A stretch of DNA of 64,000 nucleotides from Candidatus Nanopelagicales bacterium (GCA_017854795.1 JAFMHB010000001.1:80606-144605); one strand, 5' to 3'. Positions 37,423-42,732 are shown, counted from the stretch's first letter. A program made the numbers and translations. Notes: generated from the letters alone by a model not told the origin.

Positions 37423-38607
37423 ATGTTCGCCCATGCCCCGGTAATCATGGGGATCTTGAATTTAACCCCGGATTCATTTTCCGACGGTGGCCAATTTGAT
37501 TCAGTTGAATCAGCGGTCAACGCTGCCACGTCTATGGTGGATCGTGGTGCGAACATCATTGATATTGGCGGAGAGTCCACCCGTCCCGGTGCCGAAAGAA
37601 TTTCACTCGAAACTGAACTGGCACGCGTGATTCCAGTTGTTGAGCAACTCTCGGCGCAGGGTATTTACGTAAGCATTGACACCATGCGCTCTGAGGTCGC
37701 GGAAGCTGCCGTTTCTGCGGGTGCACGAATGGTGAATGACGTAAGTGGCGGTCTCGTCGATCCACAAATGTTAAAAGTGGTTGCACGTCTCGGTGTTCCG
37801 ATTGTGCTGATGCATTGGCGTGGACCGAGCAAGACGATGCAAGAGAATATTCACTACGACAATGCCGTTGTTGAAGTTTGTGCAGAATTACAGAGCCGGG
37901 CCAGAGCAGCACTGGGTGCCGGAATTGACCGCGGCAACATCATTGTTGATCCCGGAATTGGTTTTGGAAAAGAAGCTAACCACAATTGGGAACTGTTAAG
38001 ACATTTTGATGCCCTAATGGCGATCGGCTATCCATTACTCGTTGGGGTATCACGCAAGAGATTCCTCGGGTCTCTTCTGGCAGACACCGAAGGAATTCCG
38101 CGTGACGTTGGCGCCCGTGACGTCGCATCCGCGACCTCATCGGCCTATCTTCTTCAACGTGGCGCATGGGGTGTCCGAGTTCACGACGTACAAGCAACAA
38201 GTGATGCGTACAAGGCCCTGAGTGCGATCAACCCGGATCCAGCAATTGACTCAATTGAATTGCTGGGCCTGCGTGAATTTGGCCACCATGGAGTACTTGA
38301 ACACGAGCGCATTAACGGGCAGTATTTCAGTGTCGATGCAACTTTGGGGCTTTCAATTTCACATGCAGCGCACACCGACGATCTAGCGGACACCGTGAAT
38401 TACGCGGAAGTAGCGGATTCAATTCGAGCCCGAATTGCCGGAGAGCCCGTAGACCTGATTGAAAAACTTGCCGAACTGATTGCCACTGATTGCCTGGCAT
38501 TTCCTCAGGTCGTCTTCGCCAAGATTCGAGTCCATAAGCCTAATGCACCAATTGAAGGCGAATTCGGCGACGTCATTGTCACTCGAGCAAAATTTGCTGA
38601 CTCATGA
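37423..38607 (+). CDS. folP-folB: Fused dihydropteroate synthase / dihydroneopterin aldolase (FolP-FolB in one ORF)
   Basis: Residues 1 to ~275 are FolP (GILNLTPDSFSDGG, IIDIGGESTRPG, GVSRKRF). Residues ~277-394 are FolB (IELLGLREFGHHGVLEHERINGQYF...DDLADTVNY...VHKPNAPI). No stop separates them. Confidence 0.9.
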   Translation: MFAHAPVIMGILNLTPDSFSDGGQFDSVESAVNAATSMVDRGANIIDIGGESTRPGAERISLETELARVIPVVEQLSAQGIYVSIDTMRSEVAEAAVSAGARMVNDVSGGLVDPQMLKVVARLGVPIVLMHWRGPSKTMQENIHYDNAVVEVCAELQSRARAALGAGIDRGNIIVDPGIGFGKEANHNWELLRHFDALMAIGYPLLVGVSRKRFLGSLLADTEGIPRDVGARDVASATSSAYLLQRGAWGVRVHDVQATSDAYKALSAINPDPAIDSIELLGLREFGHHGVLEHERINGQYFSVDATLGLSISHAAHTDDLADTVNYAEVADSIRARIAGEPVDLIEKLAELIATDCLAFPQVVFAKIRVHKPNAPIEGEFGDVIVTRAKFADS

Positions 38608-39589: not shown

Positions 39590-39886
39590 ATGAGTGATTC
39601 CACGCTTGAAGACTTGCCCTTCGACGAACTGCGGCACCAGGCTTTTCATCTGGCAGAAAAGAAACTAGATATTGGTTTCTTCACTGACGTGTTCTCGCAC
39701 ATGCCTGGAATGATCGCGATTGAGGGCGAGGGTGGGGACCTCGGTTCAATCGGGGGGACATTTATTGAAACCGTGCGGGCCACCAAGCAAATGTTTGGTC
39801 ACGGTGAAATCGATCCAGACATTGAAACCCTGCTCCGCGCTCGATTCGCGACCTACATTCGGGCTAACGATCCAAGTCTCCAATAA
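39590..39886 (+). CDS. Hypothetical protein
   Basis: 98 aa, no recognisable motif. Its 3' end overlaps the convergent NuoD-like gene by 23 nt. Confidence 0.4.
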   Translation: MSDSTLEDLPFDELRHQAFHLAEKKLDIGFFTDVFSHMPGMIAIEGEGGDLGSIGGTFIETVRATKQMFGHGEIDPDIETLLRARFATYIRANDPSLQ

Positions 39887-40949
39887 CCAAAAACATACTG
39901 CTCAATGCGTTCGGCAACTGATCGAGGCGGTGGCCCACGAGTGTGGGAACAAGTGCCTGGAAATTATTGAATGATGCAGACCGTAATTTTAAGCGCCACG
40001 GAGTTTTGTCCCCGGCACTGACCAAATACCAACCGTTAATCCCGGTGGGTCCGTCGACCCAGGAGTAGGAGTTTCCTTCTGGTGCTCGCACCACCTTGGG
40101 GAGAACTACATTGACCTCTGAACCGTTTGTAGTTTCAAGGTGTGGCATTATTTTTTCGATAAGTGCAGTGCTCAGTGACACTTGATCAATCAGTGCCAAG
40201 AAGCGAGAGTATGCATCTCCATCCGTGTACACCTCTGGCCTAACGGCATCCAATTCCTTGTATTTGAGGTATTCGGTGTCGAATCGGAGATCGTTATTTA
40301 GTCCGCTGGCCCACGCCACTGGTCCGCTGGTGCCAAATGACACTGAGTCAGCGGTAGACAGAACCGCCAATCCGCGGAGTTCACTCTGATTCAGACTTTC
40401 ACGGAGAGTGGGGAGAATTTTCTGCAATTCATAAATAATTTCATGACTTTGTTCGGAGGTGTCGGTGGGAATGTCGTGAGCAACACCTCCAATGCATGCG
40501 TACATTGGGTGAACTCGATTACCCGTGATCGACTCGAATAGGTTGGCGATCTGGTTGCGGATCTGGTGGGTTTGCTGAGTCGGTAGAAATGCAATCAGGG
40601 CTGAGATCCGGGTGAACTCAGCCAGCAACATGCGAATCCACGTGGCTCTCTCGGGAGGGTGAATTCCCATTGCCGATTCAAGGGTCAGCGCAACTCCAAG
40701 TTCTGAAGTAAACGGCGCATACCAGTCGTGGCGGTTAGCCAGCATCATGATTTGTCGGTAGTCACGAACCTCGAAAAGTTTTTCGGCACCACGGTGCATA
40801 AAGCCAATACGAGGTTCGACATCGGTGATCAGGTCACCATCGAGGGTGAGGTTGAGTTGAAATCCTCCTTGAGCACTTGGGTGAAATTCACCCAAATCGA
40901 TTCTGATCTCGCCGGGGGCCAAGCCAATACCGGCAATCACATTACGCAT
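39864..40949 (-). CDS. Orphan NuoD / complex I 49-kDa-subunit-like protein (no other nuo genes nearby)
   Basis: 361 aa. GEFHPSAQGGFQLNLTLDG...VEPRIGFMHRGAEKL...ERATWIRMLLAEFTRI and the C-terminus WRLKLRSASFNNFQAL...FLVIGDLDR are colinear with NuoD/Nqo4. No [NiFe]-hydrogenase CxxC motifs. Confidence 0.8.
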   Translation of the reverse strand: MRNVIAGIGLAPGEIRIDLGEFHPSAQGGFQLNLTLDGDLITDVEPRIGFMHRGAEKLFEVRDYRQIMMLANRHDWYAPFTSELGVALTLESAMGIHPPERATWIRMLLAEFTRISALIAFLPTQQTHQIRNQIANLFESITGNRVHPMYACIGGVAHDIPTDTSEQSHEIIYELQKILPTLRESLNQSELRGLAVLSTADSVSFGTSGPVAWASGLNNDLRFDTEYLKYKELDAVRPEVYTDGDAYSRFLALIDQVSLSTALIEKIMPHLETTNGSEVNVVLPKVVRAPEGNSYSWVDGPTGINGWYLVSAGDKTPWRLKLRSASFNNFQALVPTLVGHRLDQLPNALSSMFLVIGDLDR

Positions 40950-40961
40950 ATGTGCATCGTT

Positions 40962-41828
40962 TCATGTCCGAGTACCAAAGTCTTGAACGAGCCACCGAAA
41001 ATTATTGTGACCAGGATCGACATCGGTGATTGAAGTGGCTGTGATGTCCGGACGTGATGCTATTGCGGCACTGGCACAAGAATCCAACGCAACGTGAGTT
41101 GTGATGTTTACTTCCCCGTTGGGAATCGCGCGAACAGAACTACCAAGTTGATATCCGGTGAGAGTGCCGGCATCAAATAATCCCTTGGCCCGCTGGTCAA
41201 GTGAATGTGAGTAATCAATAGCGATTGCCCGTCCTGTACTGAAAATGTTTACCAATTTAACCCACGCGTGATCGCGAGTGATTCCAATTTCTCGACGTGC
41301 ATGAGGAGCTGTTTGCGGCCACCACTGTGCGAGCCATTCCAATTCCACCTCTGAAATTGGCTCGCCCAACTGCTCATGACCACTGACGGGATCAACCAAA
41401 ACTGTTCGCGGTGTGAGGTTCTCGTCGTATTCGACAACGGTGGTGGGAATGTCATCTAAGAGCTCATGGGCAATCACGACACCGAATTTCTCCCTGATCG
41501 GGATTTTTCGCGCGTCACCACTGGACACATCGTAAATCTGGGTTTTCCAGTTGAGTCCATTTTCGCGGATGAGGTGTTGCAGCTTTTCCACAAGTGAACC
41601 GTCGGATCCACCAACATCGAGGATCAAGAATTGAGTGGGAGAACCGCAATACTGATAAGTTTCGAGTAGATAGGGAAATAATTCCGCTGCCAAATCTGGG
41701 TTGGATTGAACAGCCGTACGAAAGTGCTCATAGGGATTTGCTCCCTTGGTCCCGAACTCACCGTAAAAGCTATTGGGGCCGAAAGCTGCGCCCTCCCAAG
41801 CATTGATCCAAGGAATGTATGGGGACAT
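40962..41828 (-). CDS. MidA/NDUFAF7-like (DUF185) SAM-dependent methyltransferase
   Basis: 288 aa. SAM motif I LILDVGGSDGSL. IAHELLDDIPTTVV (compare ANEFFDALP), AIAIDYSHS (compare DYGY), GTLTGYQLGS...GEVNITTHVALDS (compare GTLRCY...DITAHVDF). Lies 12 nt upstream of the NuoD-like gene. Confidence 0.6.
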   Translation of the reverse strand: MSPYIPWINAWEGAAFGPNSFYGEFGTKGANPYEHFRTAVQSNPDLAAELFPYLLETYQYCGSPTQFLILDVGGSDGSLVEKLQHLIRENGLNWKTQIYDVSSGDARKIPIREKFGVVIAHELLDDIPTTVVEYDENLTPRTVLVDPVSGHEQLGEPISEVELEWLAQWWPQTAPHARREIGITRDHAWVKLVNIFSTGRAIAIDYSHSLDQRAKGLFDAGTLTGYQLGSSVRAIPNGEVNITTHVALDSCASAAIASRPDITATSITDVDPGHNNFRWLVQDFGTRT

Positions 41829-41862
41829 GGGACATGACGTTAGTCACCCCTAGGCTTTTGGC

Positions 41863-42732
41863 ATGGACTCGCCTCCCCGTTTGCGTATTGGGGTAGTCGG
41901 AGCAGGCCGTGTTGGCGCTGTTTTGGGTGCGGCCCTGCGATTGGCTGGCCATAACTGCATTGGTGTGAGTGCGGTATCGGATTTGTCCCGACTGCGCGCC
42001 GACGCACTCCTTCCGGGCGTACCCATCAAAGCTGCCGATCAAGTGGTAGCGGAATCCGAGTTGGTGATTCTGGCCGTGCCAGACAGTGTTCTCCCTGAAC
42101 TCATTCGCGGTTTTTCCTCCAGTGAGGTCTTCATCCCTGGGCAGTTCGTAGCCCACACCTCGGGAAATTACGGGATCTCGGTTTTTGAATCAGCCCCACA
42201 AGTTTCACCCATGGCGATTCACCCGATCATGACTTTCACCGGAACCAGCGTTGACCTTGCCCGGCTGCCGGATACACCATTTGGAGTCACCACCACAGAA
42301 ACACTTCGACCCGTGGCTGAAGCGCTGGTGGTGGAAATGGGTGGTGAGCCGGTTTGGGTCCCTGAAGAGTCACGGGCGATCTACCACACCGCGATGGTGT
42401 TGAGTTCAAACTACCTCAATGTTCTCGTCAATGAAGCTGTATCACTTTTGACGGAGTCAGGAATGGAAAGTCCGCAGCGCATACTTGCGCCACTTCTCAG
42501 TGCTTCCCTGGACAATGCGTTGAGGTTAGGAGACAAAGGTCTGACCGGGCCCGTCGCTCGTGGAGACTCCGAAGTTATTCGCAAGCACCTCGATGCACTA
42601 CACGAGCGCCCAAGTTCACAAAATGCCTATCGCGCTCTCGCCCGACTAGCAACTGATCGAGCGCTCGCTGCGGGTTTACTCTCTGTCGATCAGGCTGCAG
42701 ACCTTCTTATTGAATTGAGTGAGAACACATGA
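41863..42732 (+). CDS. Rossmann-fold plus DUF2520 protein (Rv3603c-like, putative ketopantoate-reductase-type oxidoreductase)
   Basis: IGVVGAGRVGAVLG dinucleotide motif and the DUF2520-like C-terminus (LTGPVARGD). Conserved position upstream of panC, with a 4-nt overlap. Confidence 0.75.
   Translation: MDSPPRLRIGVVGAGRVGAVLGAALRLAGHNCIGVSAVSDLSRLRADALLPGVPIKAADQVVAESELVILAVPDSVLPELIRGFSSSEVFIPGQFVAHTSGNYGISVFESAPQVSPMAIHPIMTFTGTSVDLARLPDTPFGVTTTETLRPVAEALVVEMGGEPVWVPEESRAIYHTAMVLSSNYLNVLVNEAVSLLTESGMESPQRILAPLLSASLDNALRLGDKGLTGPVARGDSEVIRKHLDALHERPSSQNAYRALARLATDRALAAGLLSVDQAADLLIELSENT

Follow-up and report, generated by a model that had tools for sequence, protein, structure and literature searches.

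The locus lies within a window of 64 kb, the whole stretch of DNA that was analysed, and comprises two minus-strand genes, one for a short-form methyltransferase of the MidA/NDUFAF7 family and one for a NuoD-like protein, together with the neighbouring features and codons listed below.

39590..39886, plus strand: conserved 98-aa ORF, a neighbour convergent with the NuoD-like gene
39864..40949, minus strand: NuoD-like protein (NuoD2, 'HDW' family), 361 aa, with a 49-kDa fold and a remodelled quinone site
40722..40724, minus strand: Trp76 codon, at the quinone-binding Tyr position by alignment
40779..40796, minus strand: codons H52-R53-G-A-E-K57, with R53 at 40791-40793
40869..40871, minus strand: Gln27 codon, by alignment at the quinone-ligand His position (second His of HPxxH)
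40950..40961, minus strand: 12-nt spacer from the methyltransferase stop to the NuoD-like start, operon-like coupling, read from the sequence
40962..41828, minus strand: MidA/NDUFAF7-family SAM-dependent methyltransferase, short form, 288-aa ORF, assigned by Pfam and fold
41829..41862, no strand: 34-nt divergent intergenic region between the methyltransferase gene and the DUF2520-panC operon

Both ORFs of the pair were recovered exactly where the sequence-only reading had called them, 12 nt apart, and all of the motifs it quoted for the two proteins were found in the translations. Its remark that no other nuo gene lies nearby also held, with no other nuo homologue observed across the 64-kb window. 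The 3' end of the conserved 98-aa ORF overlaps that of the NuoD-like gene by 23 nt, and this ORF is probably outside the methyltransferase/NuoD-like system. No consensus promoter or terminator was detected above chance at the locus, including the 34-nt intergenic region, and an Rfam scan of the locus gave no match.

Families and folds of the two proteins

The methyltransferase is, as judged from sequence, profile and predicted fold, a true MidA relative, and the proposed DUF185/MidA assignment was thus upheld. The protein matched PF02636 (Methyltransf_28) with E=6.5e-11 and 42.6 bits against a cutoff of 23.3, the match spanning profile positions 91-237 only, and gave no match in NCBIfam. The single sequence found no match in the PDB with phmmer, and a family profile was required, which recovered 4f3n over its full length (4e-20), 1zkd (4e-15) and 5ztz, the Dictyostelium NDUFAF7 homologue (3e-10). 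The AF2 model of the methyltransferase reached a pLDDT of 90.6, and its top six Foldseek matches (4g67, 4f3n, 5ztz, 5zu0, 1zkd_A and 1zkd_B) were all MidA-family structures with TM values of 0.72-0.77, the next methyltransferases following at E values of at least 1e-4. Sequence identity to the solved MidA structures is 12-17%, and the motifs that are invariant in the methyltransferase family, HF.T, D71 (DVGG), E122-L-D125..P128, D205-Y206, G221-T-L and T243.H245-V, align with blocks conserved in 4f3n and 1zkd. The 288-aa protein lacks the C-terminal helical insert of ~45 aa that is present in most actinobacterial homologues.

The NuoD assignment was likewise borne out, by PF00346 (Complex1_49kDa; E=6.4e-42, 143.9 bits against a cutoff of 24), by profile comparison and by the predicted fold. 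The protein remained under every NCBIfam NuoD equivalog cutoff (235 vs 360, 221 vs 522 and 217 vs 459 bits) and aligned over its entire length with NF008974, an NCBIfam NuoD model of 366 positions. Its AF2 model is confident over the full length (pLDDT 88.9, pTM 0.91), with Foldseek TM values of 0.82-0.86 against NuoD/NDUFS2/NdhH chains. The relatives of this protein form a large and distinct family by sequence, with the signature H74-D75-W76, H147 and D358-x-D360-[RK], near-invariance at 72 of the 361 positions among 118 homologues, and a spread over at least 589 species in a profile search of genome contigs; the closest to the window among the species matches listed shows 59% identity. A [NiFe]-hydrogenase large subunit (group 4) was considered as an identity and rejected; as had been noted from the sequence, the protein contains no CxxC motif, and PF00374 reached 15.4 bits against a cutoff of 25.8.

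Both genes of the pair are under purifying selection in the lineage of the window. Comparison with an 80%-identical relative gave dN/dS values of ~0.08 for the NuoD-like gene and ~0.11 for the methyltransferase gene, with similar values for panC and folK next door and 0.056 for the neighbouring 98-aa ORF, all of these figures being rough because dS is saturated.

Gene neighbourhood across actinobacteria

The pair had been described as interrupting the folK-DUF3180 / DUF2520-panC backbone, which proved wrong, as the pair is a conserved part of this backbone in many orders and belongs to a fol/pan/nad block that is syntenic across orders. The survey of gene neighbourhoods that had been suggested for MidA-NuoD-like pairs revealed co-conservation: of 89 related loci, drawn from many actinobacterial orders, 79 have the methyltransferase gene upstream of the NuoD-like gene on its strand, and all five of the searches that started from the methyltransferase led to a NuoD-like gene downstream. 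The spacing between the two genes is at most 150 nt in 39 of the 79 loci, some overlapping by a few nucleotides (4-nt overlaps, for example, in L007 and L090); overlaps or spacings of at most 30 nt were observed in 31 loci from several orders, and spacings above 1 kb in 28 of the 79. Four loci with at least 6.6 kb of upstream sequence contain no methyltransferase gene, and the NuoD-like gene was next to another nuo gene in none of 87 loci. Because the pair sits inside an anciently conserved syntenic block, its co-location could partly represent inherited gene order.

Predicted target arginine, quinone site and the second nuo cluster

Alignment with ovine, Paracoccus and M. smegmatis NuoD identifies R53 of the NuoD-like protein as the equivalent of NDUFS2 Arg85, which is symmetrically dimethylated and was identified from the tryptic peptide 75-85, KCDPHIGLLHR. 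The sequence-only reading was therefore correct in placing the NDUFAF7 target Arg within HRG(T/A)EK; the loop is intact here, and R53 is invariant in all 118 NuoD-like homologues. Away from its termini, the AF2 model is of low confidence at residues 50-55 only.

The quinone site exhibits a different pattern of conservation. Trp76 sits at the position of Y. lipolytica Y144 and Thermus Y87, which by our own numbering we take to be bovine Y108, and the Arg-to-Trp76 spacing of +23 equals that of R121-Y144 in Y. lipolytica. All 118 close homologues have Trp here, as do essentially all of the representatives that score at least 186 bits, and canonical Streptomyces NuoD kept Tyr wherever the motif was matched (114 of 120). 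The replacement of the second His of HPxxH by Gln was confirmed as Gln27, at the quinone-ligand His position, where H, Q, A, T, P, D, M, N and S all occur across the family. With Trp invariably in place of the quinone Tyr, and with a ligand His position that varies, the putative second enzyme (Nuo2, below) must rely on acceptor-site chemistry other than canonical quinone reduction. Within the family, erosion of the quinone site has gone furthest in the protein of the window (Gln27 and a 13-residue loop), which might reflect a changed role, and the 11-residue loop deletion is found in certain lineages, including that of the window, and is not family-wide. The family as a whole keeps Arg53 and His147, which both point towards cluster N2 in NuoB.

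Second nuo clusters without a D gene were observed in several actinobacteria. Nonomuraea gerenzanensis carries the pair, a canonical nuo operon and an EFG-less second cluster in one genome, the last of these being D-less and ordered A2-(M48)-B2-C2-H2-(insert)-I2-N2, where the identity of NuoC2 rests on phmmer; the second NuoB was absent from the first 50 kb searched near the canonical operon and was found on widening the search. Published descriptions include a second nuo cluster without D in Salinispora ('NDH-1 partial1') and a Streptomyces nuo2 in which nuoD2 lies apart from nuoA2, B2 and H2-N2, with a canonical nuo operon also present. Metagenomic B2-C2-H2 loci were D-less in 31 of 33 cases, and two metagenome contigs (L166 and L167) have the order A2-B2-C2-D-H2. 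The D encoded in these two clusters carries HR, RHDW, the ~40-aa deletion of the family and GDIDR. It shares 57% identity with the NuoD-like proteins of Nonomuraea and Actinoplanes vs 42-44% with canonical NuoD; in a neighbour-joining tree it falls at the base, not clearly inside the HDW clade. No MidA-like gene was located within 8 kb of it. All of the 80 NuoB2 loci kept are high-GC, and the lineage of the window has 52% GC. Streamlined and even highly streamlined actinobacteria are described as keeping a paralogous 11-gene nuo cluster. The locus numbers SCO3391-3393 had no match in the literature. Partial nuo operons are not treated in Spero et al. 2015. The literature search found no functional study of nuoD2, of nuoA2/B2/H2 or of MidA/DUF185 with NuoD.

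A reciprocal pattern of Arg and Thr was observed between the D and B subunits. Canonical NuoD has Thr at the Arg53 position in Streptomyces (120 of 120), M. smegmatis and Nonomuraea, and in the same three canonical NuoB carries Arg where Thermus Nqo6 has its 'switch' residue, R83. NuoB2 has Thr there, in Nonomuraea and in 80 of 80 metagenomic sequences, as do the plant mitochondrial NDUFS7 chains that were aligned. The inter-subunit switch and the key/lock role of its Arg are published, and this Thermus/Mycobacterium type of canonical complex I, with NuoD-Thr and NuoB-Arg, defined the position examined on NuoB2 and explains why canonical actinobacterial NuoD, having Thr, cannot be a substrate at that site. 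Because the canonical subunits combine NuoD-Thr with NuoB-Arg but NuoB2 has Thr, the NuoD-like protein and NuoB2 would form a complementary pair, and from this pattern we infer that the two associate as D2-B2; the pattern within one genome comes from a single genome, that of Nonomuraea. Nuo2 would accordingly be the opposite of the Thermus/Mycobacterium type, combining the mitochondrial-type D-Arg with B-Thr.

Predicted role of the pair and rival explanations

On the comparative data, the NuoD-like protein most likely supplies the D subunit missing from a second complex-I-like enzyme of actinobacteria, one with 11 subunits (Nuo2), and the mitochondrial step of methylating NuoD before assembly would on that account probably also operate here. 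Nuo2 would consist of A2, B2, C2, D2 and H2-N2, without the NADH-oxidising module (NuoEFG), and in most Actinomycetes nuoD2 would be placed outside the nuo2 cluster, at the fol/pan locus directly behind the MidA/NDUFAF7-type methyltransferase gene, with the two proteins being made together. Acting on NuoD2 while it is still free, the methyltransferase would methylate Arg53, the invariant arginine of the flexible HRGAEK loop, as NDUFAF7 does with NDUFS2 Arg85. The modified Arg53 would then insert beside the [4Fe-4S] cluster of NuoB2, at a place taken by a small Thr in NuoB2 and by an Arg in canonical actinobacterial NuoB, and would lock the D2-B2 module together during assembly. An enzyme-substrate relation appears to be the best reading of the comparative data, and the whole explanation, in which NuoD2 of Nuo2 is methylated at Arg53 by the neighbouring methyltransferase before NuoB2 docking, is considered reasonably probable, the methylation itself and the presence of a nuo2 cluster in the organism of the window being its presumed parts. 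Several points count against it: the function of prokaryotic MidA has so far been an in silico inference only, the window contains no nuo2 and its lineage has 52% GC where the NuoB2 loci are all high-GC, the spacing of the two genes is above 1 kb in some loci and four loci have no methyltransferase gene, the quinone site of the protein of the window is eroded, the D of L166 and L167 has no MidA-like gene within 8 kb, this D is placed basally in the neighbour-joining tree, and the reciprocal Arg/Thr pattern within one genome comes from Nonomuraea only.

The gene order could be an ancestral accident, with the methyltransferase acting on another protein, DNA or a small molecule, which seems unlikely although several observations agree with it: the whole fol/pan/nad block is syntenic across orders, the two genes are more than 1 kb apart in 28 of the 79 loci, the in-operon D of L166 and L167 has no MidA nearby, and DNA methylation has been claimed for a Wolbachia MidA, a result that its authors call preliminary. 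Inherited synteny alone agrees less well with the overlaps or spacings of at most 30 nt in 31 loci of several orders, with NDUFAF7 also following an 11-subunit operon in a different actinobacterial class, and with the sole experimentally established MidA substrate being exactly this Arg of the NuoD family, within a motif that is invariant in NuoD2 and absent from canonical actinobacterial NuoD.

The sequence-only reading called the NuoD-like protein free-standing and suggested that it could be a sensor or adaptor. The first description stands for gene order only, since the family has the hallmarks of the D subunit that is missing from a second nuo cluster encoded elsewhere (in Nonomuraea, Salinispora and Streptomyces), and the second is not the leading reading, given that a D with this signature is encoded inside the cluster of L166 and L167 and that D-less nuo2 clusters exist elsewhere. 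A stand-alone module, in which the protein works apart from any membrane complex, in the lineage of the window or in general, and might bind or sense in a methylation-dependent manner, is accordingly judged rather improbable. It agrees with the lack of an adjoining nuo gene in 87 loci, with the loss of the ligand His and the quinone-site loop from the protein of the window, and with a window that contains no nuo2 and belongs to a 52% GC lineage vs NuoB2 loci that are all high-GC. Opposed to it are the retention of the N2-facing Arg53 and His147 in the family, the D encoded inside the nuo2 cluster, the occurrence of D-less nuo2 clusters in orders carrying the orphan gene, and the maintenance of the 11-gene cluster even in highly streamlined actinobacteria. 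If the lineage of the window lacks nuo2, the pair would represent a soluble, methyl-arginine-dependent NuoD-derived protein outside any complex-I-like enzyme, an outcome regarded as similarly improbable, and such a role, if true, would put the 49-kDa fold to a use of a categorically new kind.

A further rival, in which NuoD2 substitutes for the regular D subunit of canonical 14-subunit complex I under certain conditions, is very unlikely: the fold is the same, the sequence is colinear and pair-bearing genomes (Nonomuraea, Streptomyces) also hold a canonical nuo operon, but the Arg of canonical NuoB already occupies the Arg53 site, so that two arginines would presumably compete for one site, the complementary Thr is found on NuoB2, and the quinone Tyr is replaced by Trp. 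Decay of a pseudogene fragment from a relocated nuo operon, which the sequence-only reading had named as a refuting outcome, is effectively refuted. The protein is shorter than canonical NuoD and has replaced catalytic residues, but its ORF is intact, 72 positions are near-invariant, dN/dS is ~0.08, at least 589 species match, the fold is confident over its full length, NF008974 aligns end to end, and the D inside the cluster of L166 and L167 has the same ~40-aa deletion.

The preferred reading, a D subunit of Nuo2 methylated before assembly, resembles the NDUFAF7-NDUFS2 Arg85 system of mitochondrial and Paracoccus complex I, in which arginine methylation is essential for assembly of the mitochondrial enzyme. 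The same two protein families are involved, the HRGxEK loop retains its Arg, the NuoB/NDUFS7-type partner likewise has Thr at the switch position, and in both, methylation is proposed to come before the subunit docks with its Fe-S partner. The predicted substrate here, however, is the paralogue NuoD2 of an 11-subunit enzyme without an NADH module and not canonical complex I, the genes of enzyme and predicted substrate are adjacent and away from the rest of the complex, Trp replaces the quinone Tyr, and the methyltransferase has 288 aa against about 400. The further suggestion of the sequence-only reading, an evolutionary precursor of the assembly step, found no support here; a published view, in the part of the source available, assigns MidA a proteobacterial origin.

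If true across the phylum, the move of nuoD2 beside its modifying enzyme would mark a complex-I-like enzyme of bacteria in which an arginine must be methylated before assembly, and the Trp-for-Tyr substitution an acceptor site without canonical quinone reduction. The pair is the strongest genomic-context evidence known to us for a bacterial MidA-NuoD relation and points to a respiratory enzyme in at least 589 species genomes with the quinone-site Tyr universally Trp. Actinobacteria appear to hold both D/B arrangements side by side, in canonical complex I and in the mitochondrial-type Nuo2, and Streptomyces and Micromonospora offer tractable genetics in which the methylation question could be addressed without lethality.

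The claim of an undescribed module holds in part. Streptomyces nuoD2 is already annotated, and the Streptomyces nuo2 and Salinispora 'NDH-1 partial1' clusters are most likely the same system, judged from the separate nuoD2 described, with NuoD-like/MidA pairs at the fol/pan slot in the Streptomycetaceae loci L007 and L072; the papers found on Streptomyces nuoD2 provide annotation only, and no mention of the adjacent MidA, of the Arg/Thr reciprocity or of the Tyr-to-Trp change was found in them. A 2021 preprint on Ca. Actinomarina (10.1101/2021.02.01.429150), as far as its available part goes, reports no residue-level analysis and describes an EFG-less 11-subunit nuo operon followed by NDUFAF7 (PF02636), read as an assembly factor, and htpX. 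In that account nuoD lies inside the operon with NDUFAF7 after it, whereas here nuoD2 is outside the operon and travels with the methyltransferase gene. An HtpX/M48 gene is associated with the nuo cluster in Ca. Actinomarina, according to the same part of the preprint, and in Nonomuraea alike.

The methyltransferase/NuoD-like pair and its conserved slot

Two adjacent genes separated by a 12-nt spacer were analyzed, and their coordinates, as well as every motif quoted from them in the sequence-only reading, were found in the translations. The two Pfam families proposed for them were likewise recovered.

40962-41828, minus strand: MidA-type methyltransferase, 288 aa (PF02636 Methyltransf_28, E=6.5e-11, Pfam)
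39864-40949, minus strand: NuoD-like protein (NuoD2), 361 aa (PF00346 Complex1_49kDa, E=6.4e-42, Pfam)

The GC content of the pair is about that of its surroundings, and, as had been noticed, no nuo homologue other than the NuoD-like gene was detected in the 64-kb window. Compared with an 80%-identical relative, dN/dS was about 0.08 for the NuoD-like gene and about 0.11 for the methyltransferase, with 0.10 for panC and 0.08 for folK (all rough values, as dS is saturated), and this comparison indicates purifying selection on both genes in the window's lineage. Proteins identical to the pair are also present on metagenomic and NCBI contigs. A PDB search with the methyltransferase as a single sequence returned no match, while a profile of 29 homologues aligned along most of its length with three MidA-family proteins of known structure, namely Burkholderia COG1565 (4f3n, 4e-20), Rhodopseudomonas DUF185 (1zkd, 4e-15) and the Dictyostelium homologue of NDUFAF7, the mitochondrial MidA counterpart (5ztz, 3e-10). 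The AlphaFold model (pLDDT 90.6) matched only MidA-family structures strongly in Foldseek (TM 0.72-0.77, E 1e-12 to 1e-14), with the next-best methyltransferases at E>=1e-4. The family-invariant motifs are HF.T, DVGxG, (H/N)E(L/W)LD..P, DY.H, GTLTG and T.HV..D, and the window's protein represents a short form without the C-terminal insert of about 45 residues. By sequence and fold the methyltransferase is a MidA relative, with a predicted activity.

The pair had been thought to interrupt a conserved backbone; it is instead part of that backbone and occupies the same slot across actinobacterial loci. The neighbourhoods of NuoD-like genes (Actinoplanes plus two metagenomic lineages) and those of methyltransferase genes (Kribbella, Crossiella, Phaeacidiphilus plus two others) share one common order, tilS-hpt-ftsH-folE-folP-folB-folK-DUF3180-(95-99 aa ORF), the pair on the opposite strand, and DUF2520-panC-nadB-nadC-coaX. 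Scanning a single genome for each species with the family-specific motifs [MV]LANRHDW and EKLFE[VA]RD confirmed the NuoD-like family in at least 589 species genomes among at least 600 matches, the closest among the matches listed being a Nanopelagicales MAG (59% identity). For neighbourhood analysis 80 of the at least 589 matching loci were kept, labelled as Nanopelagicales, Frankiales, Streptosporangiales, Mycobacteriales (MAGs), Acidothermaceae, Geodermatophilaceae and Nocardioidaceae, or belonging to Actinoplanes, Micromonospora and Dactylosporangium (Micromonosporaceae), Kribbella, Aeromicrobium and Streptomyces. The pairing expected in other actinobacteria was borne out, with the methyltransferase upstream on the same strand in 79 of 89 loci carrying the NuoD-like gene; five of the other ten have less than 1.4 kb of upstream sequence, and in four loci the methyltransferase was not found near the NuoD-like gene. 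Among these 79 loci the two genes lie at most 30 nt apart in 31 and frequently overlap there; gaps of 31-150 nt were seen in 8 loci and gaps of 151-1000 nt in 12. In the other 28, about a third, the gap exceeds 1 kb; these are mainly Nonomuraea, Actinomadura and Kribbella loci, where genes are inserted between. None of 87 loci showed a NuoA/B/C/E/F/G/H homologue at a distance of up to 10 kb from the NuoD-like gene. Adjacency alone is weaker evidence than it appears, because the pair sits in an anciently syntenic block. M. tuberculosis is not known to carry the pair.

Several further features of this block were observed. The ORF at 39590-39886 (plus strand), of the 95-99 aa type and without a Pfam family, is found behind DUF3180 in many loci of actinobacteria, and it shares 23 nt with the 3' end of the convergent NuoD-like gene; it is a real gene, since its dN/dS against the relative L176 is 0.056. 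The folP and folB genes are fused at 37423-38607 (plus strand) into one 394-aa protein, likewise in loci L003 and L176, and are separate in L002, L005-L007, L089 and L090. The Rossmann-like/DUF2520 gene (41863-42732, plus strand) always precedes panC, with a 4-nt overlap in the window; ketopantoate reductases of the PanG type presumably belong to its family, and this would account for the linkage. In locus L023 (5403-8562) frameshifted NuoD-type fragments lie to both sides of the NuoD-like gene on the other strand, and the methyltransferase is on the other strand as well, probably an assembly chimera or inverted duplication; a MAG labelled Bifidobacterium breve (L013) carries an actinomycete fol/NuoD-like/MidA block of 68% GC and is probably mis-binned.

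Residue patterns of the NuoD-like family

The NuoD-like protein aligns colinearly with NuoD/NDUFS2 of M. smegmatis, Paracoccus and mitochondria. Its AF2 model is confident (pLDDT 88.9, pTM 0.91) and matches structures of 49-kDa subunits at TM 0.82-0.86 and 24-29% identity (Foldseek). It scores 217-235 bits against the NCBI NuoD equivalog models, where 360-522 are required, and is therefore a NuoD homologue but no ordinary NuoD. Among 118 homologues, 72 of the 361 positions are near-invariant. When 1.84 billion representatives were searched exhaustively and the matches classified by residue, the family showed a clean signature of H74-D75-W76, His147 and a C-terminal D-x-D-[RK], whereas canonical NuoD/NuoCD proteins show x-D-Y, mostly a non-His residue at 147 and mostly E-x-D-R.

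Arg53, within H-R-G-A-E-K, is invariant in the family and corresponds to Arg85 of NDUFS2, as checked against the published tryptic peptide KCDPHIGLLHR (residues 75-85), which confirms the earlier statement that the NDUFAF7 target lies in the HRG(T/A)EK loop. Residues 50-55 around Arg53 form the sole internal low-confidence segment of the model. Trp76 stands at the position of the quinone-binding Tyr, is found in essentially all family members, and lies 23 residues after Arg53, the same spacing as from R121 to Y144 in Yarrowia. Position 27, that of the quinone-ligand His of complex I, varies freely across the family and is Gln in the window's protein, as the sequence-only reading had noted. A quinone-site loop is canonical-like in Actinoplanes and Nonomuraea (24 residues, GSYPLE[IL]GA[IM]TP) and is shortened to 13 residues in the window's lineage. 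Fold and Pfam profile agree with NuoD; equivalog scores, quinone-ligand residues and operon context do not, and the protein is better classed as a NuoD paralogue (NuoD2 of the 11-subunit enzyme) than as NuoD.

Two proteins of NuoCD length (P0344 and P0401, 500-519 aa) carry M-D-W, with Trp at the quinone-Tyr position, and otherwise look canonical (T at 147, E-x-D-R end); Tyr may therefore have been replaced by Trp on more than one occasion.

A second nuo cluster and the Arg/Thr arrangement

The Nonomuraea gerenzanensis chromosome NZ_LT559118.1 (11.85 Mb, labelled 'plasmid I' and almost unannotated in PLSDB) carries the pair as well as two nuo clusters. The methyltransferase maps to about 465.7 kb and its NuoD-like partner to 471.0-472.2 kb; the canonical nuoA-N operon is at 1.138 Mb, and about 55 kb beyond it lies the second cluster, of the order A2-(M48 peptidase-like ORF)-B2-C2-H2-(3.5-kb insert)-I2-J2-K2-L2-M2-N2, from which D, E, F and G genes are absent. 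A D-less nuo2 cluster thus occurs in a genome carrying the pair.

NZ_LT559118.1 (L093) 1,209,652-1,211,391: M48 peptidase-like ORF between nuoA2 and nuoB2
NZ_LT559118.1 (L093) 1,213,815-1,217,351: 3.5-kb insert between nuoH2 and nuoI2

A metagenome scan with NuoB2 found at least 553 relatives; 33 of the 34 loci with more than 2.5 kb downstream show the order B2-C2-H2, 31 of these 33 without a D gene. S. coelicolor nuoD2 is presumably SCO3392. For Salinispora, published gene lists include an 'NDH-1 partial1', inherited vertically, that comprises nuoB, nuoC and nuoH-N but not nuoD, and the Salinispora cluster has an insert at the same place as in Nonomuraea.

According to published work, the arginine of HRGxE is 3.7 A away from cluster N2 and acts as an inter-subunit 'key/lock' with NDUFS7 (mitochondrial NuoB). 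Its dimethylation is documented for mammals, yeasts and Paracoccus, whereas the E. coli residue is not dimethylated; Thermus has Thr at this position, and Arg83 of NuoB (Nqo6) fills the same space. Canonical NuoD has LH-T-G in 120 of 120 Streptomyces sequences (retrieved with a query that served as bait only and was 94-98% identical to the database entries) and the same Thr in M. smegmatis and Nonomuraea, while canonical NuoB reads ..MIVAG-R-VSQKMAP.. in all three, with Arg as in Nqo6; judged by these residues, the canonical complex I of actinobacteria belongs to the Thermus type. The second set is reversed, with MH-R-G in the NuoD-like protein and ..MIVSG-T-VTDKMAP.. in Nonomuraea NuoB2, whose small residue would match the NuoD2 arginine, as in the plant mitochondrial NDUFS7 chains aligned. 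The cysteine motifs CC, GAC and GCPP of this NuoB2, which supply the four N2 ligands, are intact. Thr occupies the switch position in 80 of 80 kept NuoB2 relatives (of the at least 553 from metagenomes), and all four residues were seen within one genome in Nonomuraea only. Canonical NuoD has Thr at the site and therefore cannot be the methyltransferase substrate there, and the NuoD2 arginine would be expected to collide with that of canonical NuoB.

Proposed role and related arrangements

Taken together, the sequences make it most likely that the NuoD-like gene specifies subunit D of Nuo2, the enzyme with 11 subunits, and that the gene upstream specifies a MidA-type arginine methyltransferase dedicated to this subunit. 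The two proteins would be co-translated from one operon, and the methyltransferase would act on NuoD2 while it is still free and its flexible HRGAEK loop is exposed, ahead of the burial of that loop against NuoB2, a timing that agrees with the early, pre-assembly action of NDUFAF7 and with the proposed key/lock role. The pair would work by analogy with NDUFAF7-NDUFS2. With Trp76 and without a conserved residue at position 27, Nuo2 would not be expected to bind or protonate quinone canonically. We infer NuoD2 methylation, D2-B2 pairing and, for the window's own organism, a nuo2 cluster; the NuoD2 of this organism is the most eroded form in the family and may, less probably, have a stand-alone role.

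For Ca. Actinomarina, a 2021 preprint (10.1101/2021.02.01.429150) describes an 11-subunit operon (nuoA, B, C, D, H-N) followed by NDUFAF7 (PF02636), htpX and pspE, read there as assembly factors; the htpX matches the M48-like ORF inside the Nonomuraea cluster. According to another paper, the extremely streamlined Actinomarinales still keep an EFG-less paralogous nuo cluster, for which F420 has been suggested as donor or acceptor. The pair had been called an undescribed module, which holds in part: the nuoD2 annotation, EFG-less clusters and a passing mention of NDUFAF7 beside one were already known, whereas three points are new within the literature searched: nuoD2 has been detached across the phylum and joined in an operon to the methyltransferase gene, Arg and Thr are arranged reciprocally in the two enzyme sets, and the Tyr-to-Trp change is universal.

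Two metagenome contigs retain a D gene of the HDW (NuoD2) type inside the cluster, in the order A2-B2-C2-D-H2.

L166 8467-10203: in-cluster HDW-type D region
L167 9001-10227: in-cluster HDW-type D region

No MidA gene was found within 8 kb of either. These D proteins contain GYMHR(A/S)FEK, NRHDW, KTPWR and GDIDR, share with the NuoD-like family a deletion of about 40 residues before the C-terminus, and are 57% identical to Nonomuraea/Actinoplanes NuoD-like proteins versus 42-44% to canonical NuoD. A crude NJ tree placed them near the base, between the HDW and canonical clades, which fits both a member and a sister of the family, and their gene order may be the ancestral arrangement.
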